Translations under genes and position numbers: made by a program | Part shown: in pieces, positions 5,383 to 46,391 of the stretch | Numbering within the stretch: the first letter of the stretch is position 1 | Layout of the letters: each line of letters opens with the position of its first letter | IMG/VR virus record: IMGVR_UViG_3300042991_000725 | Coordinates: 1 to 59,631 of that record | Source: a virus | Taxonomy: Duplodnaviria; Heunggongvirae; Uroviricota; Caudoviricetes | Length of the DNA stretch: 59,631 nucleotides | Strand: one strand, 5' to 3' | Notes under the pieces: model-generated | Databases searched by the model: none | What the model was told of the DNA's origin: nothing | What the model saw: the letters and a program-made list of their open reading frames with translations, nothing else

Positions 5383-5392
5383 TTCTTGGGAG

Positions 5393-6416: not shown

Positions 6417-6432
6417 TCCGTAAGGAGTATTT

Positions 6433-26254: not shown

Positions 26255-26609
26255 CATACATAGGAGCAATAGACAGGACAATATTCTTGCGAAACTTAAG
26301 AAACTTTTTCCGTATGATATATTTTATGAAGAAGTAAGAATTCCAGAGACTAGATTGTCTATAGATATATTGTCTCCTTCTTTGCGTGTGGCTGTTGAGG
26401 TGGATTCGGAACTCCATGAAAAGTACAACAAACATTACCACAAAGACTATCATTCTTTTTTGCGAGTGTATAAAAACGATACGCTTAAAAATAAATTATG
26501 CGCCATCAATGGGTTAAAATTAATTAGACTTGATAGGGACGAATATTCTAACGACCAGCTTGCTTCATTAATTTTAATAAAGGAACAGAAGCATGAGCAT
26601 ACAGTCTGA
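26199..26609 (+). CDS. Vsr/DUF559-like PD-(D/E)xK endonuclease
   Basis: EEVRIP...IDI...AVEVDSELH...NDTLKNKLC...LKLIRL. Confidence 0.8.
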   Translation: MQWTTERGQRINLKLTKHSIHRSNRQDNILAKLKKLFPYDIFYEEVRIPETRLSIDILSPSLRVAVEVDSELHEKYNKHYHKDYHSFLRVYKNDTLKNKLCAINGLKLIRLDRDEYSNDQLASLILIKEQKHEHTV

Positions 26610-29888: not shown

Positions 29889-30433
29889 CACCATTACAGA
29901 AGATAGAATCGGGTATTGTGGATGGCAATATGTTTCTTGTAGCAGAAGGGTACTCCGATTTGACCGGGGATAAAATTGAAGTCAGGGATACAATGACCAC
30001 ATCTGATAACAGCGCTTTTAAGCAAATTCTTTCTGTTATAAACGACTATAATGGCGGAAAGCTTATACAATTGACTATCGGAAGTGCCCCAGGGAACCAA
30101 GATACAGAAGGCATTAAACCTCCAGCGAAGCGTGGTCGTCCACCTAAGAACAAGGCTATAACTGCTGTTGCGTTGAACGAAACTGCTTCAAATGCAAATA
30201 GCGGCATTGTTGTAGCGCAAGATCAACCTGCGCCAGTTGCTAACAACGACAAGCCCAAGACTGTAGGTGATGTTTTGGATAAGCTCGACTTTAAGGGAGT
30301 GTCTAGCACGGAGCCACGTCCGCCTCCACGATACCCAAAGACCCAATGCAACATTTGCGAACAGATGTTTGAAAACAAATATAGCTCTGCGAGTTGCCCT
30401 TCTTGTCTCCAGGGTAGGGGGAAGAGGTCATGA
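29885..30433 (+). CDS. Hypothetical protein with AT-hook-like motif and C-terminal Zn ribbon
   Basis: KRGRPPK; CNIC...CPSC. Confidence 0.7.
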   Translation: MTPLQKIESGIVDGNMFLVAEGYSDLTGDKIEVRDTMTTSDNSAFKQILSVINDYNGGKLIQLTIGSAPGNQDTEGIKPPAKRGRPPKNKAITAVALNETASNANSGIVVAQDQPAPVANNDKPKTVGDVLDKLDFKGVSSTEPRPPPRYPKTQCNICEQMFENKYSSASCPSCLQGRGKRS

Positions 30434-31962
30434 AGTTTAAGTACCTTGATTTAACAGATATGGAGCTTGAAAAAGCATTTTTGGGTTGTTGTGCTAAACG
30501 CCCAGATTTGATTTTTGATGTGGAAGGAATCATCAGGCCGGAAGATTTAACAGAAGCAAATTCGGTCATATTCGGCATAATGCATACGCTTGTTGTTGAT
30601 AAAGAGTACAAGAAAATAGATTCTGTAAGCATTATTAATTATGCGAAAGAGGCAAAGCTTAGAGACTCCATTGGTGAAACGAAGTATGTTAGCGAAATTT
30701 GTTCGTCTGATGTTGAACCAAGTAATTGCATGAAGTATGCCGTAAAAATAAAGCAGTTGAGCGCCAAGCGTATTTTGAAGGAAAAGTTGGAAGGCGCTGC
30801 AGCAACTATCTTAAATGATGAAACTACTGTTTTATCTACGCTTGGCAATGTAGAAAAAGAGATTTTTGATTTTACCTCAATCATTAGTAGTGAGAACAAG
30901 ATAAAGAAACTTGGTGCTGGAGCTTTAGAACTTATCACAAAACTGGCAAATGAAAAGAGGGAGACTATAGGTTTGCCAACATCGTTTAAGTTACTTGACA
31001 AAGCCGTTGGTGGTTTGTTTAGGAGGCCATCTGTAAACGTTTTCGCTAGTAGGTCGAAGGGAGGTAAGTCGTTTGCTGCTATGAACTTATGTCACGATCA
31101 AGCCAAAAGAAATGTACCAGTCCTCCTCCTTGACAGCGAATTGTCCGAAGAGGACCAACAAATTCGACTTGTTAGTTTGGAATCTGCCGTTCCTTCTTAT
31201 CAATTGGAGACAGGCCGTTGGTGCGGAGAAGTTGCATATAAGGATATGGCTATTGATTCGGCAAAAGCTTTAGCAGAACTTCCTCTGTATCGTGTCGGCA
31301 TTAGTGGAGAACCTATTGACGCCGCACTATCTTATATTCGCCAATTCTTAAACAGGATTGTTGGTAGGCGCCCTGATGGCCAATATAACGATTGTGTCAT
31401 CTTTTACGACTATCTTAAAATAACCGATGTGAAAGACATAACCAAGAGTGTAGAAGAGCATCAGGCCATTGGCTTCATGATGCAGAAGTTGAGAAATTTG
31501 GCATTAAGATATAACGTATCTATTAACGTCATGGTTCAAAGTAATCGTGCCGGACTCAAGAATTTTGACGAAGGGTCAGTCGCTCTTAGCGATAGACTTT
31601 CATGGTTGTGCACGAGTCTTTCCATGCTTGTCAAAAAGAGTCCAGAGGAAATCAGTCAATATGGGGCACAGCTTGGCCACAGGAAAATGTACGTTATACT
31701 ATCCCACCACGGCGAAGGTCTTGAGCCGGGAGATTTCATCCATCTCAAGGACGATTTGAGACGTGCTAAAATCGAAGAGATAAAGCTTGAGAGTGAAGTC
31801 CAGCAAAATGTCAAAAAAATGATAGATGAAAAAGAAAATTCAAGAGCTAAAAATAAACAACGAGCCAAGAGTGTTAACGAACAATCTACTAAGGAGTTTA
31901 TTGATGAAGACCTTGCCAATAGATCTCTCGGAAGCATCGTTGAAGAAGCTGAAGAGCGCTAA
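30430..31962 (+). CDS. dnaB: Replicative DNA helicase
   Basis: N-terminal DnaB domain (ELEKAFLG), GLPTSF..LD, Walker A RSKGGKS, DSELS, FYDYL, Q.NR. Confidence 0.93.
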   Translation: MKFKYLDLTDMELEKAFLGCCAKRPDLIFDVEGIIRPEDLTEANSVIFGIMHTLVVDKEYKKIDSVSIINYAKEAKLRDSIGETKYVSEICSSDVEPSNCMKYAVKIKQLSAKRILKEKLEGAAATILNDETTVLSTLGNVEKEIFDFTSIISSENKIKKLGAGALELITKLANEKRETIGLPTSFKLLDKAVGGLFRRPSVNVFASRSKGGKSFAAMNLCHDQAKRNVPVLLLDSELSEEDQQIRLVSLESAVPSYQLETGRWCGEVAYKDMAIDSAKALAELPLYRVGISGEPIDAALSYIRQFLNRIVGRRPDGQYNDCVIFYDYLKITDVKDITKSVEEHQAIGFMMQKLRNLALRYNVSINVMVQSNRAGLKNFDEGSVALSDRLSWLCTSLSMLVKKSPEEISQYGAQLGHRKMYVILSHHGEGLEPGDFIHLKDDLRRAKIEEIKLESEVQQNVKKMIDEKENSRAKNKQRAKSVNEQSTKEFIDEDLANRSLGSIVEEAEER

Positions 31963-32110: not shown

Positions 32111-33193
32111 ATGGTTATGGTTGACAATAGTCGCACAAAACGGCTTATTGGATATGCCACAGACAATATAACCGTTGTTATGGATTCTTTGGGCATAGAC
32201 TATGCAGATCGTGGAACGTATTATAATAGCAGTTGTTATGTGCATGGCGGCGATAATGGAACCGCCTTTAGTTGGTCTAAGGATTTTGGGTGTTGGAAAT
32301 GTTTTACGCACGGGTGCGATGATGAATTCGGGCATAACGTTGTTGGTCTTGTTGCCGGCGTTAATAAAGCGGGAAGAGATTCGGCTATTGGGTTTTTATA
32401 CAAATTGTTTTCTGACGAATCGGGGGAGTTGTCTGTACCTAAAGATTATGTCGGCATTAAAAGAGACAGGGCATTTTGTCAAACTAATCTTTTTTTAAAT
32501 GTAGAAGACTTGAATTCTTTGACACATTCTATCTATTTTGAACATCGTGGGTTTCATAGTGATGTTTTGGCCAAATACAGAGTGGGCGAATGTCGGGCTG
32601 GATGGAAAGGCGGACTCAATGGGACTACGAAAACTGCTAACGGCGAAGATTGGCATGGGCTATACAGACCTAGGGCTGTTATTCCTATATTTGATATTGA
32701 TAATAATTTTGTTGGATGGAATGCGCGTACATTAGGAGGGGAAAAAACAAAGTGGCTCCCTCCTCCTGGATTTAAGCGCAACTTGAATTTATTCAATATT
32801 AATTATGCAAAGGATGCGATTAAGGAAACTGGGATAGCGATACTATGCGAGGGTTGTCTCGATGTGCTCAAATTGGTCCAAAATGGTTTTGCAAATGTCG
32901 TTGGTCTTTTTGGTGTATCTATGTCTGAGGCACAGCGCAACTTGCTTATTAAATGTGGCGCAAATGCTATAATAGTAGCGCTTGATAATGACGAGAATAG
33001 GGCCGGGAATTTTGGTGCTGAACGAATAATGTCACGAAATTCGACCTATTTTGATGTCACGAATTTGACAAATTACTTGCCTAAAAAAGATTTTGGCGAG
33101 ATGACCGACTTTGAAACCAGGTCTTTTTATTATTATAAGATTAAACCGGCTATGGAGAAAATTGATGGAAGACAACAAGCTAAACAAATGTAG
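32111..33193 (+). CDS. dnaG: DNA primase (Zn finger + Toprim)
   Basis: C.VH...WKCFTHGC Zn finger; RAVIPI.D...G...R; Toprim CEGCLDV and VALDND..AG. Confidence 0.93.
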   Translation: MVMVDNSRTKRLIGYATDNITVVMDSLGIDYADRGTYYNSSCYVHGGDNGTAFSWSKDFGCWKCFTHGCDDEFGHNVVGLVAGVNKAGRDSAIGFLYKLFSDESGELSVPKDYVGIKRDRAFCQTNLFLNVEDLNSLTHSIYFEHRGFHSDVLAKYRVGECRAGWKGGLNGTTKTANGEDWHGLYRPRAVIPIFDIDNNFVGWNARTLGGEKTKWLPPPGFKRNLNLFNINYAKDAIKETGIAILCEGCLDVLKLVQNGFANVVGLFGVSMSEAQRNLLIKCGANAIIVALDNDENRAGNFGAERIMSRNSTYFDVTNLTNYLPKKDFGEMTDFETRSFYYYKIKPAMEKIDGRQQAKQM

Positions 33194-33821
33194 GCCATTT
33201 ATTGTCGGCGTGTCTGGAAAGAAGAGGTCCGGCAAGTCAACGTTTGCTGACATGATTGTTGATGAGTGTGCTAAAAAAGATCTTTGTTGTGTCCGCATGT
33301 CATTTGCCGATATGCTCAAGGAAACTATTCAAGGCGTTTTTGGTATTAATGAAGAGTTGCTCTGGGGCGATGATGACAAGAAATCTCTTTTGTGTAATGT
33401 TGTGTGGTCTGACAATATCAAAAAGATGTTCCCAAAATATAAAAATAAACATAGCAATATGACAGTGCGTGAACTTCTTCAATTTTTAGGCACAGATGTA
33501 TTCAGATTGCTATTTGGAGAGAATGTATGGAAAGACGCTTTATTTAGAAAGGTCGCAGAAGATAGTAGTATACAGGTGATTATTCTAGACGATTGCAGAT
33601 TTAATGACGAATGCGACAAAATAATAGAACTTGAAGGAATACTCATCAGGCTTAGGCGTGGAGAGGATTCCAAGGACAGCCATGAGAGCGAAACGGCTTT
33701 GGACAATTATAATTGGAAGAATCATAGTTGTTTGGTGATTGATAAAAACGCTTCTATAGAAGAATATAAAAAGATTGCCCATAAAATAGTTGAAGATGAT
33801 ATCGAAAGGAAAGTCAAATGA
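33165..33821 (+). CDS. Deoxynucleoside monophosphate kinase
   Basis: GVSGKKRSGKST P-loop, SFAD.LK, RELLQFLGTD..R, DDCRFNDE, HESE. Confidence 0.9.
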   Translation: MEDNKLNKCRPFIVGVSGKKRSGKSTFADMIVDECAKKDLCCVRMSFADMLKETIQGVFGINEELLWGDDDKKSLLCNVVWSDNIKKMFPKYKNKHSNMTVRELLQFLGTDVFRLLFGENVWKDALFRKVAEDSSIQVIILDDCRFNDECDKIIELEGILIRLRRGEDSKDSHESETALDNYNWKNHSCLVIDKNASIEEYKKIAHKIVEDDIERKVK

Positions 33822-34687
33822 AATGTGAGATGTTGTCGGCATCTAGAGCGGAGTTATTTAGGCGATGTATGTTTGGCTATTTCGTCAAGTATTATTATAA
33901 TGGTTTGGGGCGGGACGATACTACGGCGCTGGATATAGGGACTACAGTTCATGAATGTTTCGAATATATTGGCAAGCATCAAACTGATGTGGTAGATAGA
34001 GACAGTCATAAGCCGATAGTTGATGTCAACGATCTGGTCCTAGAGATTTTCCAAACAACAGAGTATTTTACAAAAAACAAATTAGATGTTAAAGATTTGC
34101 CAAACAACCACATCTATTGCGAGTGCAACACTATAGTCAATAGGTACTTAGATAGTAAGGACTGTGTGTTGTACGACGAAATCTATATAAAAGATGGGCA
34201 ACCCGTTGTGGAGCAAGAGTTTAAGTTAAAAATCGAAGGCTGTGGTCTCAACCAGCCACTGGAAATAACAGGCTTTATGGATATAGCTTTGAAGGTGAAT
34301 AGCGACACCTTGATCATAAACGATTACAAGTCAAGCAAATCTGTAATGCAGTATGATGACATAATTAACAATATACAGCTCAAGATGTACTTCGTTGCCG
34401 CAAAACATATATTCCCTGAAATCAAACACTTCATTATGAGGCTTGATTACTGTAAATTGGGCAAAAATCGTATAGTTACATTCGATAGGGATTATCCATT
34501 GGAAGTAGAATTATTCGGGATTTCCAACAGCATAAAACGCCAAACCGTATCTAATATATATAGAGAGCCGGGATGGTATTGTGACCGCATGTGCATTGGA
34601 AGGGAGCATTGTTATCAGTTGTGGAATTCATTAAAGAAATCTGGTTTGATGAGGGATGAACTCTATGGAAGAGGAACGACAGTTTAA
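33818..34687 (+). CDS. PD-(D/E)xK exonuclease, Cas4/AddB-like with Fe-S Cys ligands
   Basis: LSAS....RRC, GTTVH, GFMDI...DYKS, QLKMY, C-terminal CDRMC...C. Confidence 0.88.
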   Translation: MKCEMLSASRAELFRRCMFGYFVKYYYNGLGRDDTTALDIGTTVHECFEYIGKHQTDVVDRDSHKPIVDVNDLVLEIFQTTEYFTKNKLDVKDLPNNHIYCECNTIVNRYLDSKDCVLYDEIYIKDGQPVVEQEFKLKIEGCGLNQPLEITGFMDIALKVNSDTLIINDYKSSKSVMQYDDIINNIQLKMYFVAAKHIFPEIKHFIMRLDYCKLGKNRIVTFDRDYPLEVELFGISNSIKRQTVSNIYREPGWYCDRMCIGREHCYQLWNSLKKSGLMRDELYGRGTTV

Positions 34688-35432
34688 ATGTAACGCTAAG
34701 CATAATTGTTGTAATTGCAAAGTTTGTGAAACTACTGTATTGGCAGGTAGAGACGGGCACCTTTACATAGACGGTGGCGGCCCTGTCTGTATTTTATGCA
34801 AGTCTTGTAGAAAGTATTATTTGAAAGACCTTGTGCAGGTGAGTAATGAAATAAAGAAGAATCTTGCGCTATTACATGTTGTTTTTGACGACGGGCTTAC
34901 CTTACGACAGCTAATGCTCGGATTTAGTCAACTGGCTGTTGATTTTAACTTCATGCATTCAAATTGTCTCACAGGGATTTTCAACAAAATGTTGTCCATC
35001 CCCAAAAATGAATATAGAACAGAGATTCAGGAAAATTGCTATATAGGTTTTGATACGGAACTTGTTGTTACTAACTTAAAGAAAACAAATACATTAGATA
35101 TTCATCGTTATGCTTATGTAAAATGTCTTGAGCGTTCTGTCGATACAATAGAAAATTATAAACTCACAGATATTATAGATATGAGAGTCCATCTTTCAAA
35201 GATTGCTCCTTTGGTATTTGAATACGATCAACTTGATGAAGACGGAATACCGATTAGAAAAGAAAAGATGAAAGTCACATTGTTGTGGAAAATGTTAGAG
35301 ATATTGAGTGCTATAAGATTTATGTTCGTTAATCTTGAATCTCCTAATGCAGATATGATGACTGAAACAATCAGGGAATATCAAAATATGGTTTTGAAGC
35401 CGCTGATTAACAGAACAATGATGATCAATTGA
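34656..35432 (+). CDS. Cys-rich hypothetical protein
   Basis: N-terminal CCNCKVC and CILCKSC. Confidence 0.6.
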   Translation: MNSMEEERQFKCNAKHNCCNCKVCETTVLAGRDGHLYIDGGGPVCILCKSCRKYYLKDLVQVSNEIKKNLALLHVVFDDGLTLRQLMLGFSQLAVDFNFMHSNCLTGIFNKMLSIPKNEYRTEIQENCYIGFDTELVVTNLKKTNTLDIHRYAYVKCLERSVDTIENYKLTDIIDMRVHLSKIAPLVFEYDQLDEDGIPIRKEKMKVTLLWKMLEILSAIRFMFVNLESPNADMMTETIREYQNMVLKPLINRTMMIN

Positions 35433-35438
35433 GGAACT

Positions 35439-37274
35439 ATGTCTTATATAAGTCTTCATAATCACAGCCATTACAGCATACTTGATAGCTTGATAAGAGT
35501 TGATCAACTATTGGGCATTGCAGATGAGTATAAGATGGAAGCCGTAGCAATTACAGACCACGGCAATTGTTTTGGGCATAATGAGTTTTGGAAATTGCAT
35601 ACTGATAAAAAGGGTAAATTCAAGAACGTCAAACCGATCTTTGGTTGCGAAATTTATGTTGAAGATGGTATAGACAAGTTGACGCATATGATCCTGTTAG
35701 CCAAAAACAACAATGGTCTGCAAAATCTTTACTCTATAGTCTCTGATTCAAATAGAAATTTCAAGAAAAATCCACGTACTACCATACCTATATTAAATCA
35801 GTATGGCAAAGATCTTATATGCATGTCTGCCTGCATTGGCGGCTATACAGCTCGTCCGTTTATTAAAAATGACGAAGCGGAAGGTATGCGCAGGATAGAC
35901 GAGCTATTGAATATCTTTAAGGATGATTTCTATCTGGAAGTGCAGGACGAAAACACAAAGTATTACAATAGCAACGATTACAGCGAAGATAGCATTAGGA
36001 GCTACATGAAGGAATCTACTGCTGATTTAGATAGGCAAGAGATAGAGATGCCCGAACAAGTGCTTATAAAAAAGATATATAGAGAAATTGGGAAGCGGAA
36101 GTCCATTCCTGTTGTTTGTTCGTCTGACCCCCATTATGTCAAGCCTGGGGATGCGTTGTGCCATGACATCCTCTTATGTATCCGTTCACATTCTGTCATT
36201 ACTGATGATAAGAGGACGAAAGAGAATCCAAAAGGCAGACGATTCGCTTTCCCGTGCCATAATTTTTATTTCAAAAACGAAAAATATATGTTGTCAAGAT
36301 TCACGAAAGAAGAGGTTGAGAACACGCACAGAATTGCCAAAATGTGCAATGCAACCATAGAAAAGCGCAAAACATATCCTAAATATAAATTTGTTCCAAG
36401 TGGAGAAACCTCTGTATCATACACAAAGTCTCTGCTCAACTCCGGATGGAAAAGACTGAAGATCGATTTGAAGTCTAATAAAGACGAATATAAGAAAAGA
36501 TTGCATCATGAGTTCGAAGTTTTGGCCAAGTATGACCTGTTGGACTATTTCCTTGTTCTTAAAGACATTGTCAATTTTTGTGAATCTAAGGATATCGATT
36601 CTGGACCGGGGCGCGGATCGGCCGCAGGGTCGTTGCTTTTGTACATTCTCGGCATCACTAAGGTCGATCCAATCAAACACGAATTAATGTTTGGCAGATT
36701 CTTTAATGAAGCCAGAATGAGCAAAGACGCCGGTTCTGGTCTCGATGTGGACATGGACTTTCAGCGCGACAGGCGGGACGAAGTTTTTGCTTATATTAAA
36801 GAAAGATTTGGACAAGATTGCGTCGCTCCAATTATGACAATAGGCACACTCGACTCCAAGTCTGCCGTTAAAGCTGTTGGCCGAGCCTTGGGCCTCAATT
36901 ATGATGATGTCAACAGAATAACCAAAGAATGTTTCCCAAATCATTACGAGGATTTGGCAGACGCAATAAAACAAGAAAATAAATTGCGCCAAGAATACAA
37001 GAAAAACAAAAGACTTTTTGAGCTTGCGCGTATGGTGGAGGGTAACGCCAGCAGTCGTGGCACTCATGCTTGCGGGATTATTATTAACGATAAGCCGCTT
37101 GGTCGTGAATTCCCTCTATGTTGGGATCCAGAAAAGCAGCATCTAATTTCTGGTATTGTCGGCAAAGACATTGACGGACTGGGGTTTACAAAGATTGATA
37201 TTTTAGGATTGTCTTGTCTAAGCATTATCAAAGACACCATCAAAATGATTAAGGATGATTGCCGTGGCAACTAA
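35439..37274 (+). CDS. dnaE: DNA polymerase III alpha subunit, N-terminal half (PHP + palm/catalytic core)
   Basis: HNHSHYS, TDHGN, GCEIY, GRGSAAGS, catalytic DVDMDF, HACG, KIDILGL; stops 22 aa after KIDILGL. Confidence 0.96.
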   Translation: MSYISLHNHSHYSILDSLIRVDQLLGIADEYKMEAVAITDHGNCFGHNEFWKLHTDKKGKFKNVKPIFGCEIYVEDGIDKLTHMILLAKNNNGLQNLYSIVSDSNRNFKKNPRTTIPILNQYGKDLICMSACIGGYTARPFIKNDEAEGMRRIDELLNIFKDDFYLEVQDENTKYYNSNDYSEDSIRSYMKESTADLDRQEIEMPEQVLIKKIYREIGKRKSIPVVCSSDPHYVKPGDALCHDILLCIRSHSVITDDKRTKENPKGRRFAFPCHNFYFKNEKYMLSRFTKEEVENTHRIAKMCNATIEKRKTYPKYKFVPSGETSVSYTKSLLNSGWKRLKIDLKSNKDEYKKRLHHEFEVLAKYDLLDYFLVLKDIVNFCESKDIDSGPGRGSAAGSLLLYILGITKVDPIKHELMFGRFFNEARMSKDAGSGLDVDMDFQRDRRDEVFAYIKERFGQDCVAPIMTIGTLDSKSAVKAVGRALGLNYDDVNRITKECFPNHYEDLADAIKQENKLRQEYKKNKRLFELARMVEGNASSRGTHACGIIINDKPLGREFPLCWDPEKQHLISGIVGKDIDGLGFTKIDILGLSCLSIIKDTIKMIKDDCRGN

Positions 37275-37728
37275 TATAAAAAATCGGCCAATATCAAAAA
37301 TAAGTTGGGAGTTCTGCTGGAATGCGGCGGAAACATTGGCTGATGACATTTCCAAGATAGAACCGGACGCTACTACTATTATTGGTATTATGCGTGGTGG
37401 TATTATTTTTTCTGCCATGCTTCAATATTATTTGGGTTTTTGTGATGTTAAATCATTTGATGTAGACGATCATAATTTGGTTATTTCCACATATGGTGAC
37501 GGTTATCATGGTGGACTTGTAAGTGATGAATTTTATGGCCGCAATATTCTATTGGTTGACGATATTTCAGATACCGGGACCACATTAAATCGGGCTTCAG
37601 CTATTCTTTCACGGTACTGTACGACGATTAAAACCTGTACAATATTCATTAATAACAATACCAAGAAGTTCCCCGATTATTATTTTGGGAAAACGAATGA
37701 TTGGATTTTATATCCTTGGGAGAAATAA
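37255..37728 (+). CDS. Type I (purine) phosphoribosyltransferase
   Basis: IIGIMRGG, PRPP motif LLVDDISDTGTTL, W..YPWE. Confidence 0.9.
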   Translation: MIAVATNIKNRPISKISWEFCWNAAETLADDISKIEPDATTIIGIMRGGIIFSAMLQYYLGFCDVKSFDVDDHNLVISTYGDGYHGGLVSDEFYGRNILLVDDISDTGTTLNRASAILSRYCTTIKTCTIFINNNTKKFPDYYFGKTNDWILYPWEK

Positions 37729-38669
37729 TGGATAGAGAATTGTACTACAAGGACGTTTTACTTCTTCCTAATTACTCAATTGTAGAATCGAGAAACGACA
37801 TAAAAACAACGGTTTTTCTCGGTAGTATGACGTTTGAACTTCCGGTAGTCGCGGCGAATATGCGAAGTGTTATTTCTGAAGACCTTGCTGTTGAAATGGC
37901 TACAAAGAGATATTTCTATATTATGCACAGATTTGGTGTTGATAATATTAAGTTTTGCAGAATGATGGGAGAACGAAAGCTGTATACTTCTATTTCTGTT
38001 GGTGTCAACCAGGAAAGCAAGAGCATTATTAGTGAGCTTGCGGCCAAGAAAATTTATCCTTCTTATGTCTGCATTGACATTGCCCATGGATACGCCGTGA
38101 AGATGCGTGATATGATTGTTTTTATAAAACATGTATTGCCTAAATCATTTATTATTGCCGGAAATGTTTGTACGTCGAATGCCGTTACCGCTTTAGATGA
38201 ATGGGGGGCCGATGCAATTAAGGTGGGCACGAGTGGAGGTAGGGTATGTTCTACGAAGACCGCTACAGGATTCGCTAGACCGCAATTTTCGGCAGTATTG
38301 GAATGCTCAAAAGCAACATCAAAGCCTGTTATCGCAGATGGAGGAGTAGCTGAAATAGGAGACATAAATAAAGCTTTGTGTGCTGGCGCAAGCATGGTAA
38401 TGTGTGGGAATCTTTTTTCGTCATGTGAGGAAAGTCCGGGTGACACATTTACATTTAATGGTATTAGATACAAGTCTTTTTACGGCAGTGCGTCTGAACA
38501 TATGAGCGGCAAGAAGGAATATATCGAAGGGTTCCGTATTGATCAACCAGTAAAAGGTTCTATTTGGGATGTTTATAAACGTATTAACGACGGAGTGCGT
38601 AGTGCAGTTAGTTATGCTGGCGGCACTAATCTTGGTGTTTTTAAGAATGTGAGATGGGTAACTATTTAA
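37728..38669 (+). CDS. guaC: GMP reductase
   Basis: PVVAANM, IDIAHG, IIAGNV, KVG..GG.VCST, IADGG, FYGSAS, YIEG; no CBS domain. Confidence 0.88.
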   Translation: MDRELYYKDVLLLPNYSIVESRNDIKTTVFLGSMTFELPVVAANMRSVISEDLAVEMATKRYFYIMHRFGVDNIKFCRMMGERKLYTSISVGVNQESKSIISELAAKKIYPSYVCIDIAHGYAVKMRDMIVFIKHVLPKSFIIAGNVCTSNAVTALDEWGADAIKVGTSGGRVCSTKTATGFARPQFSAVLECSKATSKPVIADGGVAEIGDINKALCAGASMVMCGNLFSSCEESPGDTFTFNGIRYKSFYGSASEHMSGKKEYIEGFRIDQPVKGSIWDVYKRINDGVRSAVSYAGGTNLGVFKNVRWVTI

Positions 38670-38670
38670 C

Positions 38671-38883
38671 ATGACAACACTTATTATAGATAAAACTGGA
38701 AAATATGAAACTGAATATTCCACCATTCAGTCTGATGAATTTGAAGATTTTATTGGCATTTGGATGGATGATGTTATCGTTGCCGGATGCTTCCTTTATT
38801 TTATGCGGGGGTGGAGTGAATCAAGTGTTAGAGAGTATGTGAAAGAGATGAATTGGAAAATTGAAAGTGAGGTGAAGTCATGA
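38671..38883 (+). CDS. Hypothetical protein
   Basis: 70 aa ORF. Confidence 0.55.
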   Translation: MTTLIIDKTGKYETEYSTIQSDEFEDFIGIWMDDVIVAGCFLYFMRGWSESSVREYVKEMNWKIESEVKS

Positions 38884-38937
38884 AAGTTTATATTGTTACT
38901 AAGGGCCATTATAGTGACTTTGACAAGGGGGGAAACA

Positions 38938-39399
38938 ATGGATGATAATAAGATTTATAATTTTTTTGTAGTAGAAAAATATTTTCAAGAAAAGCGGTGG
39001 GACGTTTTAGCCATGCTTATTAAGGTGATTCTAAAAAAATTCAAGACAGAGGTCAATGTTTCCGCTTACTCTTATTTAAATCCAGAAGACAATTCTAATA
39101 GAGTTAATATAGATATAGAAACTGGCTCATTAAACAAAAGTGCCGAATACGAAGACGGCGATTCATCTGCTGGTTGTAATGGTCGTTTTGTTTTTTTTGA
39201 TTATTATATAGGACAATTGGTTTTAGTCAAAGATTCAGATGTTACTGGAGAAATAACAGAGCTTAAGCTTAACGCTATAGATAAATATTATGGTGTAACA
39301 AGTTATAAAAATACGAATGAATTCGTCGGATTTTTTAAGAAGGAAGAAATAGAGTTAATAGAGGATGATAGTGAAGATGGAGCAAGGAGCAGAAAGTGA
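38938..39399 (+). CDS. Hypothetical protein
   Basis: SD AAGGGGGG before ATG at 38938. Confidence 0.6.
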   Translation: MDDNKIYNFFVVEKYFQEKRWDVLAMLIKVILKKFKTEVNVSAYSYLNPEDNSNRVNIDIETGSLNKSAEYEDGDSSAGCNGRFVFFDYYIGQLVLVKDSDVTGEITELKLNAIDKYYGVTSYKNTNEFVGFFKKEEIELIEDDSEDGARSRK

Positions 39400-39911
39400 A
39401 CACTTACTTCATAGCAGATACCCATTTTGGCCACGCCAATATAATTTTGTATGAGAATAGGCCGTTCCACGATTGTTACGAAATGGACCTTGCGCTAATA
39501 AACAATTGGAACGATAAGGTTGGCCGTCTTGATAAGGTATTTTGTTTGGGCGACTTTGCCCTTTCTAATAAAGGATTTACTACTTTTGTATGCGCTAAAT
39601 TGAACGGCATAAAAAGCCTTATTATGGGCAATCATGACTGCCGATCAGCGTCTTGGTATATAGATGTTGGATTTGATGAAGTTTATAAATATCCGATTAT
39701 TTATCATGATTTTTACATTTTGTCTCACGAGCCTGTTTATTTAAATAATCACATGCCTTATGTGAACATACACGGACATTTGCATAGCAGGAAAATGGAT
39801 AATAAGAAGTATGTTAATGTGTCAGTAGAGAATGTCGAATACGCTCCTGTTGATTTTGATGCTATAAATAACACATTCAATCCTAACGTCGGGATAAACA
39901 TTGGACACTAA
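39396..39911 (+). CDS. Calcineurin-like metallophosphoesterase
   Basis: ADTHFGH, LGDF, GNHD, LSHEP, HGHLH. Confidence 0.93.
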   Translation: MNTYFIADTHFGHANIILYENRPFHDCYEMDLALINNWNDKVGRLDKVFCLGDFALSNKGFTTFVCAKLNGIKSLIMGNHDCRSASWYIDVGFDEVYKYPIIYHDFYILSHEPVYLNNHMPYVNIHGHLHSRKMDNKKYVNVSVENVEYAPVDFDAINNTFNPNVGINIGH

Positions 39912-40284
39912 AAACCATATTCTTGTCGATCTTGATGGCACTCTCGCTTATTACGACGGGCCGTCAGGCGGCGAAGTTGGCAGACCCATTCAATGTATGG
40001 TAGAAAGAGTGCGAAGTGTCCTAGATAACGGTGGAAATGTTAAAATCTTTACAGCTCGTGCAGCCGAAGGCGATCCTATGTATACAGAAGAAGAGAGGCA
40101 GCTGCGGTTGCAGAAAATTGAAGAATGGTGTTTAAAGACATTCGGGAAGAAGATAGAAATTACGGCGACAAAAACACAATATGCAACGGAGATTTGGGAT
40201 GACCGTGCGGTAGCTGTGGAGTCTAATACTGGAAGGATGAAATCCTTTTTTAAGGAAGATAAAAATGCAAAGGCCCGTTCTTAA
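39901..40284 (+). CDS. HAD-superfamily hydrolase (PNKP phosphatase-like)
   Basis: VDLDGTLA, FTAR, K...WDDRAV. Confidence 0.85.
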   Translation: MDTKNHILVDLDGTLAYYDGPSGGEVGRPIQCMVERVRSVLDNGGNVKIFTARAAEGDPMYTEEERQLRLQKIEEWCLKTFGKKIEITATKTQYATEIWDDRAVAVESNTGRMKSFFKEDKNAKARS

Positions 40285-41323
40285 GTTGAGAGAGATCATT
40301 TATGAAATTACCAGCTATTGTCAGAATGGCTGTGAATATTGTGGATCGAAAGAATACAGGGACATTGAAACAGACGAGAATCACATCAAGAGAATTATTG
40401 ATGCAATTGCCGACTATCCGCCAGAGGCTATAGACGTTTCTGGTGGCGACCCATTGGAAGTCTCTTATGACACACACAAATATTTAGTTGCTGAAATGAA
40501 TTCTCGTGGAGTTTGTTGCAAAATTCTCGTTAATCCGCTTTCGTTCAAACGAAACGAATACAACAACATAACCGACTTGTATAGCGTAGTAGGATGTTCT
40601 ATAAACAATGAAGCCGAATTAGCTGCTGCTGAGATGGTTAAGAAGATCGAAAAAACTATCATAACTAATTTCAATATGAGTAACATTTTTATGTTTGATG
40701 CAATATGCCAATATGTTGAGCATCGTTCTTTGGTGTGGCAAATCCAGCATACGATGTATCGTGACAAAGATAACAAGTCTGCTATTTATAATAGTGATGG
40801 AGCCATCAATTACTTGAGAGGAAAAATCGGCACGGCTATCAAATCCGGTATTCGTATTGTTGTTGCAGATAATGCAAATTGCGGATTGTGTGGTGCTGGA
40901 ACTTCATCTATAGGTATCAGGGCTAGTGGCGATATTGTTCCGTGTTTATCCATGGTGTCTTGGAACGACGAACCGTTTATTATAGGCAATGTTCTGGATT
41001 CTGGGTTGCTGTCCTTATGGCGTACAGGATTTGATAAATATAGATTCCATAGCTTTAGGTGCTGCAAGGATCATTGTGGCAATAGAACGATGGTGCCGTC
41101 GGTAGAACCTATTGAGTTTAATATTGAAAAAATACCAAACGCTAAGGAACGGGAACCTGTTACTCCGTCGTATCCACAGCCATGGATAGTCCAGCCTTAT
41201 AGAGTGCAGAGAGACCTCACGGTTTCGACATATGCTGTTTTTGATAGTAGAGATTATTATGGGAAAAATCCATCAGACTACAACCAAGACACCGGAGGCA
41301 AAAGTCATGAAGGTGAAGAATAG
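40265..41323 (+). CDS. Radical SAM/SPASM protein, splicease (PlpX/TIGR03913)-like, with Pro/Tyr-rich C-terminal tail
   Basis: YEIT..CQNGCEYCGS, SGGDPL, WQIQ, CGAGTSSIGI.ASGDIVPCLS, IGNV, C-terminal CCKDHC. Confidence 0.88.
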   Translation: MQRPVLKLREIIYEITSYCQNGCEYCGSKEYRDIETDENHIKRIIDAIADYPPEAIDVSGGDPLEVSYDTHKYLVAEMNSRGVCCKILVNPLSFKRNEYNNITDLYSVVGCSINNEAELAAAEMVKKIEKTIITNFNMSNIFMFDAICQYVEHRSLVWQIQHTMYRDKDNKSAIYNSDGAINYLRGKIGTAIKSGIRIVVADNANCGLCGAGTSSIGIRASGDIVPCLSMVSWNDEPFIIGNVLDSGLLSLWRTGFDKYRFHSFRCCKDHCGNRTMVPSVEPIEFNIEKIPNAKEREPVTPSYPQPWIVQPYRVQRDLTVSTYAVFDSRDYYGKNPSDYNQDTGGKSHEGEE

Positions 41324-41654
41324 GAGTGAAAATGTCGTAGATGTTCGAATTGAATCAATCGAGTCTGCTCTCAAATATTTGGGCAATATTAAAGTACCAG
41401 AAGGCAGCAAGGCGCGAGTTGAGTATACTGCCAAGACTAATTGCAAGAAGTGTTTTGGTACTGGCAAATTTGGTATAATGCTTGACAATAATAACGAGGT
41501 TTGTTGGTGTGATTGTTTGAGAAGGGGTGCCATACAAACCATTCCGCCAGAAGTTAAGTCCGATACCGTTCCTAACGCAGATGGGTCTATTGATCTGCCG
41601 GACATCAAAACAGAGGCCGAATTAAATAAGGAGGGATTCAGTGCCAAGATATGA
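41307..41654 (+). CDS. Hypothetical protein with DnaJ-like CxxCxGxG
   Basis: CKKCFGTG...CWCDC. Confidence 0.6.
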   Translation: MKVKNRSENVVDVRIESIESALKYLGNIKVPEGSKARVEYTAKTNCKKCFGTGKFGIMLDNNNEVCWCDCLRRGAIQTIPPEVKSDTVPNADGSIDLPDIKTEAELNKEGFSAKI

Positions 41655-41955
41655 CTATGTTTGCCCTAAATGTAACAACCGCGAAGAATATGTTCACAGC
41701 ATGAAGAAAAGGCCGAAGTTCTTATGCTCGGAGTGTAATGTTGCGATGGAGAAGCAGATAGGTATTGGGATAGCCACTAATGTAAAGAAGCATAAATTTT
41801 TTGGAGATTGGTACGAAAAGAATTTTCATAAGGATATCGCCGAAGGGACTGCGGACAAGATGAAACTTACAAAGGAACGATTGGACAAACATCGGTCGAA
41901 TGCGCATAAAATCCATAACCATAAAGAGAAGGAGATTAAATCACATGGCATTTAA
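41641..41955 (+). CDS. FmdB-family zinc-ribbon protein
   Basis: MPRYDYVCPKC...CSEC. Confidence 0.8.
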   Translation: MPRYDYVCPKCNNREEYVHSMKKRPKFLCSECNVAMEKQIGIGIATNVKKHKFFGDWYEKNFHKDIAEGTADKMKLTKERLDKHRSNAHKIHNHKEKEIKSHGI

Positions 41956-42493
41956 GAGAACAACTACAGCGGAGGCGGCTAGATGGCAACGTGGGGACAA
42001 GATTGTATATATTGGAAAGGCTGAATATCTTTGTTCGAAGGTTGTCGATAAGGCCAATTGTCCACGTAGTGATATTGAAAACCTAAGGCAGTGCGGGACT
42101 TGCATTTATGCAGCCGATTTGAATCCAAACGCCGTTTATCATGTAGACAGTGTTGTTTTAAAAGATAATAATGACCACAACGACAATTGTTTTTGCCGTT
42201 TATGCTCTGCTCCTGTGAAAATTAAGCTTAAAGAATTCCCTAAGTTGTCTATTGAAACCATAAAGTTTAGGCACGCCGATGCGAAGGTCAGTGTCGGAGA
42301 AGTCGCTCCTGTTGTCCAGGGTAAAAAGAAGCGTGGCCGTCCTCGCAAAAACGATGTTGTTGTTAAAAGCGAAGAGTCGGTTGTTGTTATTAGCGAGAGT
42401 AAAAAAATAGTCAAGGAGGAATACAACAGGCTACTTGAAGAGCGCAAGCGGTTGGATGACCGTATTGCAGTATTGGAAGCGCAGTTGGAATAA
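41945..42493 (+). CDS. Cys-rich protein with AT-hook-like motif and C-terminal coiled coil
   Basis: Several Cys pairs; KKRGRPRK. Confidence 0.65.
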   Translation: MAFKRTTTAEAARWQRGDKIVYIGKAEYLCSKVVDKANCPRSDIENLRQCGTCIYAADLNPNAVYHVDSVVLKDNNDHNDNCFCRLCSAPVKIKLKEFPKLSIETIKFRHADAKVSVGEVAPVVQGKKKRGRPRKNDVVVKSEESVVVISESKKIVKEEYNRLLEERKRLDDRIAVLEAQLE

Positions 42494-42503
42494 ATTGAAG
42501 CGC

Positions 42504-42595
42504 GGCGTAGCGGCGAAAGCTGATTGGACACATCAATGCACCGAGGCCATGTGTTATGCTCTAGAAAGCGAGATTAGAGGCTTCTGCCTACGCCA
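42504..42595 (+). ncRNA. Candidate structured RNA / cis-regulatory element upstream of dnaE C-terminal gene
   Basis: Perfect closing stem GGCGTAG/CTACGCC, GAAA-tetraloop hairpin, further internal stems; about 55% GC by hand count in an AT-rich genome; SD follows immediately. Confidence 0.45.
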
Positions 42596-42610
42596 TTTTA
42601 AGGATAGACT

Positions 42611-44116
42611 ATGAAGGATTTTTCTGACGAAGTCATTATTAACGACCCGGAAGTGTATAAGTTGATTAGCCGTGGCGAAACTGGCCTTGTTTTCCAGTTG
42701 AATTCACCCATTGGCAAGAAGTACAGCAAATTGGTCAAGCCACAGAACATTGAAGAACTATCAATGCTTGTTGCGTTGACTCGCCCTAACGTACTGAATG
42801 CCGGATTAGATAAAGATTTTATATCGGTGCGTAATGGCGAACGTCAACCAATATATCCAGATCCAAGATTAGAAAAGATATTAGGTCAAACATATGGCAT
42901 TTCTTTGTATCAAGAACAAATTATAACATTGGGCAAAGAGGTCGCAGGATTCAGTGAAGTAGAGGCTGATTGGTTAAGACATGCTATGGGCAAAAAAGAT
43001 AGAGATGTTATGAAAAAACTACGAAGAAAGTTTTTGGAGGGTGGTATCAAAAACAAATATTCGCTTATAAGCCTTATGACTATTTGGCGCAAATACATTA
43101 AAGCTGCATCTTCGTATGTTTTCAATAAAAGTCACGCTACAGTATACGCTTACAACTCTGCGCGTACTGCATACTTCTGTGCCCATTATCCACTAGAATT
43201 TATTTGCTCCAATCTTATTCATTCTGACGGTGATTTAGAAGAAATAAAAAAGATAATCAATGTTGCCGCATCGTTTGGCATTTCAATTAAGCTGCCGAAC
43301 ATAAAGAAATCCGGCATAGACTTTACAATTGATAAAACCGCCAATTCTATTTTGTTTGGATTGAAGCACATTAAGGGTATAGGCAAATCGGTTCTTCCCA
43401 AAATAAAGAATATTGTTAACTACGTGGGGATCGACAAGCTTTTAGTGTATGAGGCGTTTCATTCTACAATAAATAAGACTGTTATGAATGCGCTGATTTT
43501 TAGTGGGGCTTTCGATTGTTTAGACAGCAACAGGTGCCGCAATTCCAACGCATACAATTTGCTCCTTGAATTCAGTGAGCGCGAAGGAAATATTATGTTA
43601 GACATGTGGCATGACAGCTCTTCTGTACGGAGTTTGGTTAATGGATTTGTTGAGCATTGCAAGATGACGCATGACGTTAACAAAAACAGGATGGTCAAAA
43701 TTATAGAGTTACAGAATAGATTAAATGCTTTTTATGAGCTTAAGGAAAATTTCAACGAGATCATACTTAAAGAACGCGGATGTCTTGGTATTTCCTTAAC
43801 TGGCTGTGAAACAGATACTTATGATATAGACTGCAATTTGTGCCTTGATTTGAAAACAAGGGCAAATCGTGATACTATAAGGCTTTGTGTTCTTATTGAT
43901 GATGTCCGCTCTATCAAAACAAAGAAGGGCGATATGATGGCTTTTATAAGGGGGTTTGATTCATCTGGAAGCGTTGATTTCGTTTTTTTCCCACAACTAT
44001 GGGGGGAGTATAAGGATAGATTCGTAAAGGGGTCAATATTATACATTACTGGTACTGTAGAAAAGTCTCGTGGCGAAAATGTTATAGCCAATAAGATTAG
44101 GATAGTTAAAAAATAA
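42611..44116 (+). CDS. dnaE: DNA polymerase III alpha subunit, C-terminal half (fingers, HhH, OB fold)
   Basis: NDPEVY.LI..GET..VFQL.S, ALTRP, YQEQI, AD.LR.AMGKK, YVFNKSHA, YPLEF, GLKHIKGIG, KTKKGDMMAF. Confidence 0.96.
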   Translation: MKDFSDEVIINDPEVYKLISRGETGLVFQLNSPIGKKYSKLVKPQNIEELSMLVALTRPNVLNAGLDKDFISVRNGERQPIYPDPRLEKILGQTYGISLYQEQIITLGKEVAGFSEVEADWLRHAMGKKDRDVMKKLRRKFLEGGIKNKYSLISLMTIWRKYIKAASSYVFNKSHATVYAYNSARTAYFCAHYPLEFICSNLIHSDGDLEEIKKIINVAASFGISIKLPNIKKSGIDFTIDKTANSILFGLKHIKGIGKSVLPKIKNIVNYVGIDKLLVYEAFHSTINKTVMNALIFSGAFDCLDSNRCRNSNAYNLLLEFSEREGNIMLDMWHDSSSVRSLVNGFVEHCKMTHDVNKNRMVKIIELQNRLNAFYELKENFNEIILKERGCLGISLTGCETDTYDIDCNLCLDLKTRANRDTIRLCVLIDDVRSIKTKKGDMMAFIRGFDSSGSVDFVFFPQLWGEYKDRFVKGSILYITGTVEKSRGENVIANKIRIVKK

Positions 44117-44193
44117 TTTTTACGACAGTATTGCAACGCCTATTCTATCTATATAATTGTGGAGTTAACATCACTGTCAAGGAGGATTTTCGC

Positions 44194-44538
44194 ATGGGCG
44201 ATGAAAATGCTATTATTCTGAAGGGGCGAGTGGCTGGCGGTGTTTTTTTGAATGACGCTAATGGCACTTCGGTTATCAATTTTATCTTGGTCACAAATAG
44301 AATCTATAAGAAGAAGAATGGGGAGAAGGTAGATGAGGCTACCTATGTGCCCATTGAAGCCTGGGGAGTGGTTGCGGAAGATGCCCATAAGGTTCTTGAG
44401 AATAAAAAAACGGTGCTCATTAATGGCAGGCTTAAGCAGGACCGCTGGAAGGATAAAGAGGGCAACGATAGGTCGAAACTCAAGGTCGTTATAGAGAACT
44501 TCAAGGTTATCGATAGGGTCTATCATGAAGGTGAATGA
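44194..44538 (+). CDS. ssb: Single-stranded DNA-binding protein (OB fold, no acidic tail)
   Basis: N..ILKGR, VINFILVTNR.Y, IEAWG..AE, GRL.QD.W.DK.G..RS. Confidence 0.93.
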   Translation: MGDENAIILKGRVAGGVFLNDANGTSVINFILVTNRIYKKKNGEKVDEATYVPIEAWGVVAEDAHKVLENKKTVLINGRLKQDRWKDKEGNDRSKLKVVIENFKVIDRVYHEGE

Positions 44539-44728
44539 AAACTTTATAACTCTAAATGGAGCAGAAGGGCAGATGGCCCTGAATATTTCATGTATAGAAG
44601 CTATTATCGCTAAGTCTCCTTCGTCCGCAGTCATTGTCTCTACAAGTGGCAATAAGGTGATGTTGCAGATGTCGTTTGCCGAAGTAATGGCGGCTATGAC
44701 ACAAGGAGATGGTTGTGGGAAAAAATAG
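44525..44728 (+). CDS. Small hypothetical protein
   Basis: ORF overlapping both neighbours. Confidence 0.6.
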   Translation: MKVNENFITLNGAEGQMALNISCIEAIIAKSPSSAVIVSTSGNKVMLQMSFAEVMAAMTQGDGCGKK

Positions 44729-46391
44729 AAAAATAAAGCTGTTGTTTAGCAACGAGGGGAGCTGTCTTGAAACCGGCTTTTCTAAAATTGGCCGGGAAAT
44801 GATGTATATTCTTCATGATATGGGTTGTTATGATATTGTTGAACTTGCAAGTTATGTCGGTGAAGGTGATAAGCGTATTGAAAAATTCCCTTGGCGTATT
44901 TATCCAGTAGTGCCCCCCAGAGGGACATCTGCCTACAAACAGTACGAAAGGCAGTTTAAAGTTGCACAATTTGGCGCATTGCGTTTTAATAGCGTTATGG
45001 TCATTGAAAAAGTGGATTTTTGCGTGGACATTCGTGATTTTTGGATGTTGAACCATATTTTCCAGAGTCCGTATCGTAATAATTTCCGATTTGTTATTCG
45101 TCCTCCAGTAGATGGTGAGCCGCAAGATGAAGAATGGATACATTGTTTTAAGACTGCGGATGTTGTTTTTTCGCATAGTCGGTGGGGTAAGAAAATTCTT
45201 GAATCAGAAGGGGTTAAGGTAGATGGCATTCTCTATGGGTGTATCAATTCTGATAATTTTAAACCCTTGAATAAAATAGAGATGCGTAAGAAATACAAGC
45301 TTCAGCCAGATCTTAAGATTATTCTTAGCGTTATGCGCAATCAAGCCAGAAAACAGTTTCCAGAGTTGCTCCAAGCATATGCGTTGTTTAAGAAGAAGTA
45401 TCCAGAAACTTTTGAGCACTCTGTACTTTTGCTCCACACTTCATATCCGGATACAATGGGATGGGATCTGCCCCAACTTTTGCGAAGATATGGTCTTGTT
45501 TCCGATGTTATTTTTACCAATTATTGTTTGGAGTGTGGCAAGCCTTCAGTAACATTTCTGCAAAAGGATTATCACAGGAATAATAAAAATATTTGTTTCC
45601 ATTGTGATAAATACAGCGCAGTCTTCCCAAGTACAAATAGGGGAGTAAGCGAACAGGAATTGAACGAGATATATAATCTGGCAGATCTTTATGTTCAATT
45701 GGCTGGTGGAGAGGGGTCTGGCCTTCCAGCTATAGAAGCTAAAGCCACAGGCCTTCCCGTTATTTGTTGTCCATACAGTGCTATGGAAGATCACGTGCTC
45801 GATCCGGGCGGTATCGGGTTGAAGATTAAAGGCTACTATGTTGACTGGCCACAAATGATCAATAGGGTCTTGCCAGACATTGAAGACTTGGCAGCCAAAT
45901 TTGATTGGTTCTTTAAGTTGTCCAAAGAAGAGCGCATTGCAGTAGGCAAGCCGGGTATTGATTTTGTAAAGAACAACTATAATTACAAGTTGATCACTCA
46001 ACGATTCCACGAAGTGCTCCAGAACACTCCATTGCTTGATAGATCACAGACTTGGGATGCACCAATGCTTGATTTATCGGCATATAAGAGTGTGAATGAA
46101 AAAGACGAACGGCCAGATATAGACAATTATTCATTTGTCGAGTACTTATACAAGCGTATATTTAATCGTCAGCCCGAAAAGTATGGAATGATGAAAGAGT
46201 ATTTGGACGCACTCAATACCGGCAAAATGAAACGGTCTCAAATAGCACTTCAGTTAAAGCATGTTGCTGAACTTATGTGTAAATTGGAAATGCTTAGGGT
46301 GGGTGCTATTAAGAGTCCATCGAATATTAATAAGGACTTAGACGATATCGCTGAAATAGCCCAAAAACACAAGGTTATTAAAATTTTATAG
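44709..46391 (+). CDS. GT-B (family 4-like) glycosyltransferase with Zn-finger insert and DUF4214-like C-terminus
   Basis: TGFSKIG, MRNQ.RKQ, LNEIYN.ADLYV....GEGSGLP.IEA.A.G.PVI; CLEC...CFHC; FVEYLYKRIFNRQPE. Confidence 0.9.
   Translation: MVVGKNRKIKLLFSNEGSCLETGFSKIGREMMYILHDMGCYDIVELASYVGEGDKRIEKFPWRIYPVVPPRGTSAYKQYERQFKVAQFGALRFNSVMVIEKVDFCVDIRDFWMLNHIFQSPYRNNFRFVIRPPVDGEPQDEEWIHCFKTADVVFSHSRWGKKILESEGVKVDGILYGCINSDNFKPLNKIEMRKKYKLQPDLKIILSVMRNQARKQFPELLQAYALFKKKYPETFEHSVLLLHTSYPDTMGWDLPQLLRRYGLVSDVIFTNYCLECGKPSVTFLQKDYHRNNKNICFHCDKYSAVFPSTNRGVSEQELNEIYNLADLYVQLAGGEGSGLPAIEAKATGLPVICCPYSAMEDHVLDPGGIGLKIKGYYVDWPQMINRVLPDIEDLAAKFDWFFKLSKEERIAVGKPGIDFVKNNYNYKLITQRFHEVLQNTPLLDRSQTWDAPMLDLSAYKSVNEKDERPDIDNYSFVEYLYKRIFNRQPEKYGMMKEYLDALNTGKMKRSQIALQLKHVAELMCKLEMLRVGAIKSPSNINKDLDDIAEIAQKHKVIKIL

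Follow-up and report, generated by a model that had tools for sequence, protein, structure and literature searches.

A DnaE-type DNA polymerase III alpha encoded in two intein-less pieces, with cargo genes between them, in a large lineage of tailed phages

Essential phage genes can be fractured into two separate genes without an intein, as summarised by Dassa et al. (2009; PMC2677866) for the nrdA-a/mobE/nrdA-b locus of Aeromonas phage Aeh1 and for the split gp43, a B-family DNA polymerase gene, of Aeromonas phage 25. The locus analysed here is in a DNA stretch of 59,631 nucleotides (hereafter the window), which is the first 59.6 kb of the 154,404-bp IMG/VR virus record IMGVR_UViG_3300042991_000725 (Caudoviricetes), a record with direct terminal repeats and rated complete by CheckV. 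In the window, DNA polymerase III alpha (Pol III alpha) of the DnaE type, a C-family enzyme, is encoded by two open reading frames (ORFs) with other genes between them. An intein-less fractured replicase gene is known in kind; the present one is in the C family. As in Aeh1 nrdA and phage 25 gp43, an essential replication or nucleotide enzyme is cut into two co-oriented genes, with free-standing genes between and no intein; function is restored there by non-covalent assembly, and the same is proposed here. At a probability of roughly 0.85, the window is considered to encode a two-subunit C-family replicase, the product of an intein-less fractured gene, that assembles without covalent joining.

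The likeness to fractured phage genes extends to a relative of the window (L015), which has an HNH homing endonuclease in the gap. One of the features that Dassa et al. (2009) use for fractured genes is present in the window; another is absent among the gap ORFs of the window and present in L015 (HNH_3 + AP2). Unlike in Aeh1 and phage 25, the enzyme here is a C-family polymerase, the gap of the window holds 10-11 cargo genes with no endonuclease found among them, and the cut is a fixed feature of a very large lineage, not limited to a few isolates. Pol III alpha in two genes is also known from the cyanobacterial split-intein DnaE (Ssp, Npu) and from the fractured genes that carry split inteins, three of them being DnaE loci with cuts at other positions (PMC2677866). 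In those cases the cut lies elsewhere (at FNKSH in cyanobacteria) and the split-intein halves splice the protein, whereas FNKSH is continuous here and no intein sequence is present. A phage replicase of two polypeptides is found in PhiKZ, the split B-family polymerase of which (DNAP-N/DNAP-C) forms a stable 1:1 complex (bioRxiv 2026, PMC13648687); that enzyme is of another polymerase family with an unrelated fold and its complex was shown experimentally, whereas the present case is known from sequence and predicted structure. Group 2.2 jumbo phages have a minimal split Pol III alpha (Iyer et al. 2021, PMC7824862), likewise a phage C-family catalytic module made as two proteins. That version is without PHP and other domains, is cut within the nucleotidyltransferase core, and is encoded at distant loci alongside a B-family replicase; here, in contrast, a full-length DnaE (PHP, HhH, OB) is the sole polymerase, with no PolB in the genome. 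In surveys of viral replicases, the C-family polymerases of phages appear as single proteins (PMC3201878, PMC4889955), and no description of a DnaE split at palm/fingers was found in a full-text literature search, which had most subscription journals outside its reach and is not proof of absence.

The N-half (35439..37274, + strand, 611 aa) comprises PHP, palm, thumb and the first fingers helix (residues 591-607), and the C-half (42611..44116, + strand, 501 aa) comprises the rest of the fingers, HhH and the OB fold. These coordinates and lengths agree with the initial annotation of the window, and the observation of a two-ORF DnaE-type Pol III alpha is confirmed as real. The start of the next gene overlaps the stop of the N-half by 20 nt, and the C-half has its own Shine-Dalgarno sequence, as annotated (AAGGA at 42600-42604, 6 nt upstream of the ATG). 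In the N-half, PHP was matched at residues 6-170 (PF02811, 1.9e-40) and PF07733 at residues 341-590 (5e-67), the latter match running to the last profile position (260/260). The C-half match to the PF17657 fingers profile begins at profile position 25 and is followed by HHH_6 and the OB fold, with all scores above the cut-offs (PF17657, 137 bits; PF14579, 48.6 bits; PF01336, 36.2 bits). Since positions 42-617 and 626-1065 of the full-length phage family phrog_405 were covered by the N-half and the C-half, respectively, the halves abut with no overlap. In alignment to solved structures, N-half residue 605 corresponds to residue 573 of E. coli alpha and C-half residue 9 to residue 590 (637 and 646, respectively, in Taq alpha), by which the cut was placed at about E. 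coli alpha 579/582. Just 5-6 residues per side of the cut are not accounted for by DnaE homology, and at the level of sequence comparison it was confirmed that nothing of DnaE is lost or duplicated there. On the structures 2HNH and 2HPI, the cut falls at what we take to be a point about 20 residues (one helix) into the fingers, just past the strand with the third catalytic aspartate. The break had earlier been assigned to the palm-fingers loop, and this is corrected to a position one helix inside the fingers domain.

The hallmarks of a DnaE-type enzyme, namely PHP with its ligands, the palm with its Asp triad, and fingers, HhH and OB fold, are all present; the single polypeptide chain is replaced by two ORFs with 5,336 nt between them. 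All nine PHP metal ligands (H7, H9, D16, H41, E71, H83, C132, D230 and H232) are kept in the N-half and are conserved among relatives with the exception of L008. The palm Asp triad (D436/D438/D587) is invariant in 16 sequences and aligns with that of E. coli and Taq alpha, and the C-half motifs are invariant across 26 stand-alone C-halves. The earlier statement that the halves do not overlap and keep their key motifs is therefore upheld by the phrog_405 coverage, the PHP ligands and the Asp triad, as is the claim of an uninterrupted YVFNKSH, FNKSH being continuous at C-half residues 171-175.

Covalent rejoining of the halves, whether through trans-splicing of the proteins, splicing of the RNA or a programmed excision of the 5.3-kb insert from the DNA, has precedents, in that split-intein DnaE exists in cyanobacteria and among fractured genes (PMC2677866) and that the stand-alone C-halves of some relatives hold an intein elsewhere in the protein (PF14890). 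Split-intein halves would need roughly 100 + 35 residues, as against the 5-6 unmatched residues at the present cut. No intein-N part, intein-C part or +1 nucleophile was found (the C-half begins M-K-D-F-S), and the cut is elsewhere than FNKSH. Intein, recombinase and homing endonuclease matches were absent from the gap ORFs in Pfam, PHROGs and NCBIfam, about five of these ORFs matching nothing; no Rfam family, introns included, was found over 34000-46000 at E<=1; and a direct-repeat search returned no repeats bracketing the insert, only chance-level pairs of 14-21-mers placed elsewhere. The gap genes, moreover, are ordinary and conserved, and covalent rejoining is regarded as extremely unlikely. 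The initial annotation had claimed that there is no intein, that no intron, recombinase or homing nuclease lies in the gap, and that the locus differs from the split-intein DnaE case; the first and third points are borne out by the short tails and the unbroken FNKSH, and the second by the Rfam, Pfam, PHROGs and NCBIfam searches, within which about five gap ORFs were unmatched. A dead-intein clasp was also considered as the joint between the halves and was rejected because the tails are too short.

The split is a widespread lineage trait, common to hundreds of related phages, and is not peculiar to this phage. The same cut was found in about 80 other loci examined. The nearest relative (L006, an 11-kb metagenome contig) has the same module and the same cut, with 53% identity in the N-half and 44% in the C-half, and in five further loci (L007, L008, L009, L010 and L015), which share 30-35% identity with the window, the cut falls on the same position of the alignment. 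Rossellomorea phage phiT1 (PV767480.1), a cultured phage with a genome of 52.8 kb, is cut at the same residues as the window (gp20/gp19/gp18); its gap is 150 nt with one 49-aa ORF, and its two pieces both bear the annotation DNA polymerase III subunit alpha. No paper on phiT1 was found in the literature search. The C-half was searched with HMMER, exhaustively, against 1.84 billion representatives of 50%-identity clusters, and the best 150 were classified as stand-alone C-halves starting at the cut (63), full-length proteins (56) and ambiguous or partial sequences (31). Eighty IMG/VR loci, collected with a profile of stand-alone C-halves and thus biased toward split forms, comprised 71 split loci (gaps of 426-4,978 nt), six fused ones and three with the N-half more than 9 kb away; in the last three, gaps of 10.6, 11.8 and 13.7 kb are filled with co-directional ORFs. 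Among 78 measured split loci the gap ranged from 308 to 5,336 nt (median 880), the window having the largest, which is exceeded by the three far-apart loci. An IMG/VR scan with the N-half as a single protein returned just four distant loci. The survey of relatives for split or fused state and insert content that had earlier been proposed thus found the split state widespread and the cargo variable.

In profile searches of the genome, neither DnaQ (PF00929) nor a beta clamp (PF02768) was matched, and no clamp loader was found in the phage, as might be expected if the split gene were a dead relic and the host Pol III replicated the phage. Against this stand two long open frames with every catalytic and metal-binding residue kept, the same split in relatives of 30-53% identity inside a full phage replication module, and a large clade that is mostly split. 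The relic explanation is accordingly held to be very improbable, and the split polymerase, judged from its sequence, is probably working. Non-covalent assembly is the only reading that fits the anatomy, because the tails are short, no intron was matched, no flanking repeats were found, the motifs are intact and the cut is conserved. The earlier proposal of a non-covalent two-subunit replicase is in this way supported by a clean cut, the lack of a splicing device in the searches, the intact motifs and a cut kept at 30-53% identity, with the association itself resting on structure prediction.

Co-folding of the two halves, which had been suggested as a check, was run three times, with three controls, on N-half residues 1-611 and C-half residues 1-330 with an alignment for each. 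The interaction prediction score from aligned errors (ipSAE) was 0.79 in 3/3 runs as against 0.00 for the best control; the calibration mark is one that 58 of 80 solved complexes attained, as did 2 of 110 mismatched pairs. Contact agreement between the runs was at least 97% and the predicted local distance difference test value (pLDDT) of the partner was at least 79. In the predicted complex, N-half helix 591-607 contacts C-half helices 172-204 and palm loop 389-426 contacts 172-182, with the contact geometry of an unbroken DnaE. From these data we infer that the 611-aa subunit would supply the PHP proofreading site, the palm with the three catalytic aspartates, the thumb and the first fingers helix, and that the 501-aa subunit would supply the remaining fingers (the deoxynucleoside triphosphate (dNTP)/template side, including FNKSH), the HhH DNA-binding module and the OB fold. 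The two would be held together by the C-terminal helix of the N-half (591-607), slotted into C-half helices at about 172-204, and by palm loop 389-426 against 172-182. Both genes belong to one co-directional and tightly packed gene array.

The products might instead work apart; the N-half could be, for example, a PHP exonuclease or a minimal polymerase, and the C-half a separate DNA- or clamp-binding factor. Pieces of a minimal Pol III alpha are indeed encoded far from each other in jumbo phages (Iyer et al. 2021, PMC7824862), and the halves are up to 13.7 kb apart in some relatives of the window. Yet wherever a locus is long enough for a judgement, both halves are present, and the N-half ends in a helix that is structurally part of the fingers and is predicted to pack into the C-half. 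A palm without fingers, moreover, has no dNTP-binding side of the active site (DnaE structures 2HNH and 2HPI). Separate work by the two products is considered very unlikely.

The history of the cut was followed in trees of the C-half region, in which the split state is strongly clustered (16 changes vs 33 with shuffled labels for 100 rows, and 8 vs 17.5 for 56 rows). One well-supported clade is split in 32 of its 33 rows, and well-supported branches force at least 6-8 state changes in both trees, the supports being quick and FastTree values that are not fully trustworthy. Isolated split calls among bacterial-like sequences may be frameshifts or gene-calling errors. With the root placed on the bacterial-like sequences, the first branches to diverge within the phage group were split; the window and L006 form a firm pair. 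Such trees are compatible either with an old fission followed by several re-fusions or with repeated fission at one permissive site. According to a published model, invasion by homing endonucleases fractures genes (PMC2677866), and the L015 gap, in which an HNH_3+AP2 protein typical of free-standing homing endonucleases is encoded, fits this model. We infer that the gene was fractured long ago at a break-tolerant site, probably via an invading free-standing gene such as a homing endonuclease, and that the gap may since then have been a bay for changing cargo, which in this phage would consist of the zinc-ribbon and AT-hook genes shared with the nearest relative plus an extra 4.4-kb block.

The cargo differs among the loci, which marks the gap as a place where genes have repeatedly been gained and lost. 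A DnaQ-like exonuclease is encoded in the gap of 71/78 split loci, often with an ORF of about 60 aa; in the gaps of the window, L006, L008 and L015 its place is taken by a zinc-ribbon gene. The L006 gap (1.4 kb) holds a zinc-ribbon gene, a DUF7695 gene and a Cys-rich AT-hook gene, the L093 gap a glycosyltransferase and three methyltransferases, and on another contig a thymidine kinase gene is just upstream of the C-half. In the window, the gap (37275-42610, 5,336 nt) has ten solid co-directional ORFs and one doubtful 59-aa TTG ORF, so that the earlier description of a ten-gene, 5.3-kb insert stands. These genes, all on the + strand, start with a purine (xanthine/hypoxanthine-guanine type) phosphoribosyltransferase (PRT; 37255..37728; PF00156, the best NCBIfam matches being XPRT/HGPRT below the cut-offs) and a GMP reductase (37701..38669; NF003966 with 374 bits vs an equivalog cut-off of 344; PF00478). 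They are followed by two ORFs of 70 aa (38671..38883) and 168 aa (38893..39399), both without a family match (for the former in Pfam and PHROGs), a metallophosphoesterase (39396..39911; phrog_547, 1.9e-46; Metallophos_2 weak), a 127-aa ORF of phrog_1238 (39901..40284; E 3.9e-11, without a Pfam match), a radical SAM/SPASM enzyme (40265..41323; SPASM, Fer4_12 and Radical_SAM) and a 140-aa ORF without a family match (41232..41654). The last members are an FmdB-like zinc-ribbon protein of 104 aa (41641..41955; TIGR02605, 38 bits vs a cut-off of 31), a Cys-rich protein of 197 aa with a C-terminal AT-hook (41900..42493), which has a 210-aa counterpart in the L006 gap, and the doubtful TTG ORF (42435..42614), which has no family match and the stop of which overlaps the C-half start (ATGA). 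The FmdB-like zinc-ribbon gene is common to the gaps of the window, L006, L008 and L015 (as Zn_ribbon_8 in L008 and L015), and the window protein is 48% identical to that of L006. The break had been said to host nucleotide-metabolism genes; this holds for the GMP reductase and the purine PRT, the other gap genes not being clearly of that kind.

Eight of these genes, including the purine PRT and the GMP reductase, form a 4.4-kb cargo block (37255-41654). If the block were an assembly artefact, the true gap would be like the 1.4-kb gap of L006; the block is on one contig only, and in L017 a PRT-GMP reductase pair forms a cassette that is not near dnaE. This is hardly credible, though, given the 20-nt overlap of the PRT start with the N-half stop, the closure of the contig into a 154-kb genome with terminal repeats, and the cargo-filled gaps of 5-14 kb in relatives; GC content and GC skew are also continuous with the flanks across both gap junctions. 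In L017, an unrelated viral contig, the PRT is directly upstream of the GMP reductase (L017:7500-8945; 30%/33% identity to the window pair), and because the pair adjoins there away from any dnaE, it is regarded as a movable purine-salvage cassette.

Several points weigh against a non-covalently assembled replicase as described above. The co-fold pass may reflect model memory, because intact DnaE structures are solved, and the prediction may show that the pieces resemble two parts of one fold, i.e. likeness rather than binding. Neither a beta-clamp-binding motif (a simple pattern scan of the C-half for the Qxx[LMIF]x[FLM] type, which is short and degenerate) nor a clamp gene (genome search) was found. 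The 4.4-kb block, in addition, is known from this one contig, and its junctions are backed only by overlapping ORFs and uniform base composition.

A further and rather unlikely possibility is that the cut is used and not just tolerated, with the gap as a conserved cargo bay within the replicase operon and the zinc-ribbon and AT-hook proteins as additional subunits of the replicase, binding or stapling its halves or tethering these to DNA; the bay of the larger sister clade holds a DnaQ-like proofreader instead. If this were true, the phage would have a modular C-family holoenzyme of three or four chains. The non-covalent two-subunit replicase would itself suggest that a break in the chain, one helix into the fingers, is tolerated by a replicative polymerase of the bacterial type, and that a two-piece DnaE has long served replication in a large group of uncultured and mostly aquatic phages. 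Two-piece DnaE enzymes could be designed on this natural pattern, non-covalent reconstitution could be tested in the C family, and the split could mark out a big phage lineage. The gap further illustrates how auxiliary genes (for proofreaders, endonucleases, purine-salvage enzymes and glycosyl- and methyltransferases) can settle stably in an essential gene that has been fractured. The value of the window is that of a well-documented and cargo-rich example, not that of a unique discovery or a singular event.

Nearly all genes up to about 52.8 kb of the window are on the + strand, and both DnaE pieces are surrounded by a phage replication module (Pfam, PHROGs). RecA is encoded at 24936-26054 and a stand-alone protein of the uracil-DNA glycosylase (UDG) superfamily at 26593-27390 (PF03167, 1.4e-32); the latter also matches the UDG-like segment of the phage PolA family phrog_17. 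The conserved module starts with a DnaB-like replicative helicase (30430..31962, +; PF00772, PF03796, phrog_19), followed on the same strand by a DnaG-type primase (32111..33193; Toprim_2, DNAG_N, phrog_47), a deoxynucleoside monophosphate (dNMP) kinase (33111..33821; PF21448, phrog_139), a PD-(D/E)XK exonuclease (33818..34687; PF12705, phrog_69) and, before the DnaE N-half, a 258-aa ORF without a family match. The single-stranded DNA-binding protein (SSB) gene (44131..44538, +; PF00436) follows the C-half in every related locus, and a GT4 glycosyltransferase is encoded downstream of SSB in the window. The order DnaB-primase-dNMP kinase-PDDEXK ... SSB is kept in L006-L010 and L015, with a glycosyltransferase after SSB in several. 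Across the complete genome PF07733 and PF17657 were each matched once and no PolA or PolB was found, so the split DnaE is the only recognisable polymerase of the phage. A megablast of the 10-kb region against GenBank phages matched nothing. Counts in promoter and terminator scans were not above the shuffled expectation, and the scans are therefore uninformative on transcription units.

Further variation was observed among the relatives. The L008 N-half (L008:7105-9692) has lost five PHP ligands (K, S, S, S and K at window positions 7, 16, 41, 83 and 232, respectively) and has a DnaQ-like exonuclease gene directly upstream, whereas the window has all PHP ligands and no DnaQ gene; this contrast looks like the known PHP/DnaQ trade-off. 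Five stand-alone C-halves of 755-813 aa (P0179, P0198, P0205, P0268 and P0272) hold an intein (PF14890) or an insert of 250-300 residues near residue 60-70, and some lineages therefore pair the intein-less cut with a true intein elsewhere. In L106, L107, L108 and L093 (G003, G002, G001 and G004, respectively), a sub-lineage with gaps of 5-14 kb, the N-halves are 772-791 aa and the C-halves 584-650 aa, and the palm profile is matched in two stretches of the N-halves, implying an extra insert of about 80-90 aa. Many C-halves of the clade with DnaQ in the gap, and that at L009:10001-10100, have about 25 extra N-terminal residues with Cys (offset about +21 to +28), which could be a docking tail or a start-codon miscall. 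L080 (IMGVR_UViG_3300033149_006567, about 5300-9000) is fused at palm/fingers, its N-terminal DnaE matches being interrupted (5303-6145 and 8152-8961) with a homolog of the window metallophosphoesterase between them (6558-7076), and the cut in this locus seems to lie elsewhere, between PHP and palm. The dnaE of Bacillus phage vB_BceM_WH1 (L013, LC597490.1 194353-198551) is annotated as three coding sequences (gp235, gp236 and gp237). Stretches of 0.4-0.7 kb without annotation separate them, and the interruption is probably of another type (introns or inteins, for example). Finally, the full-length proteins closest to the N-half (36-37% identity) are DnaE sequences of 1,050-1,070 aa, the named sources being Patescibacteria/candidate phyla radiation (CPR) bins (Levybacteria, Paceibacterota, Saccharimonadales and Jorgensenbacteria), a likeness that could hint at the host range of the phage or at the origin of the gene.

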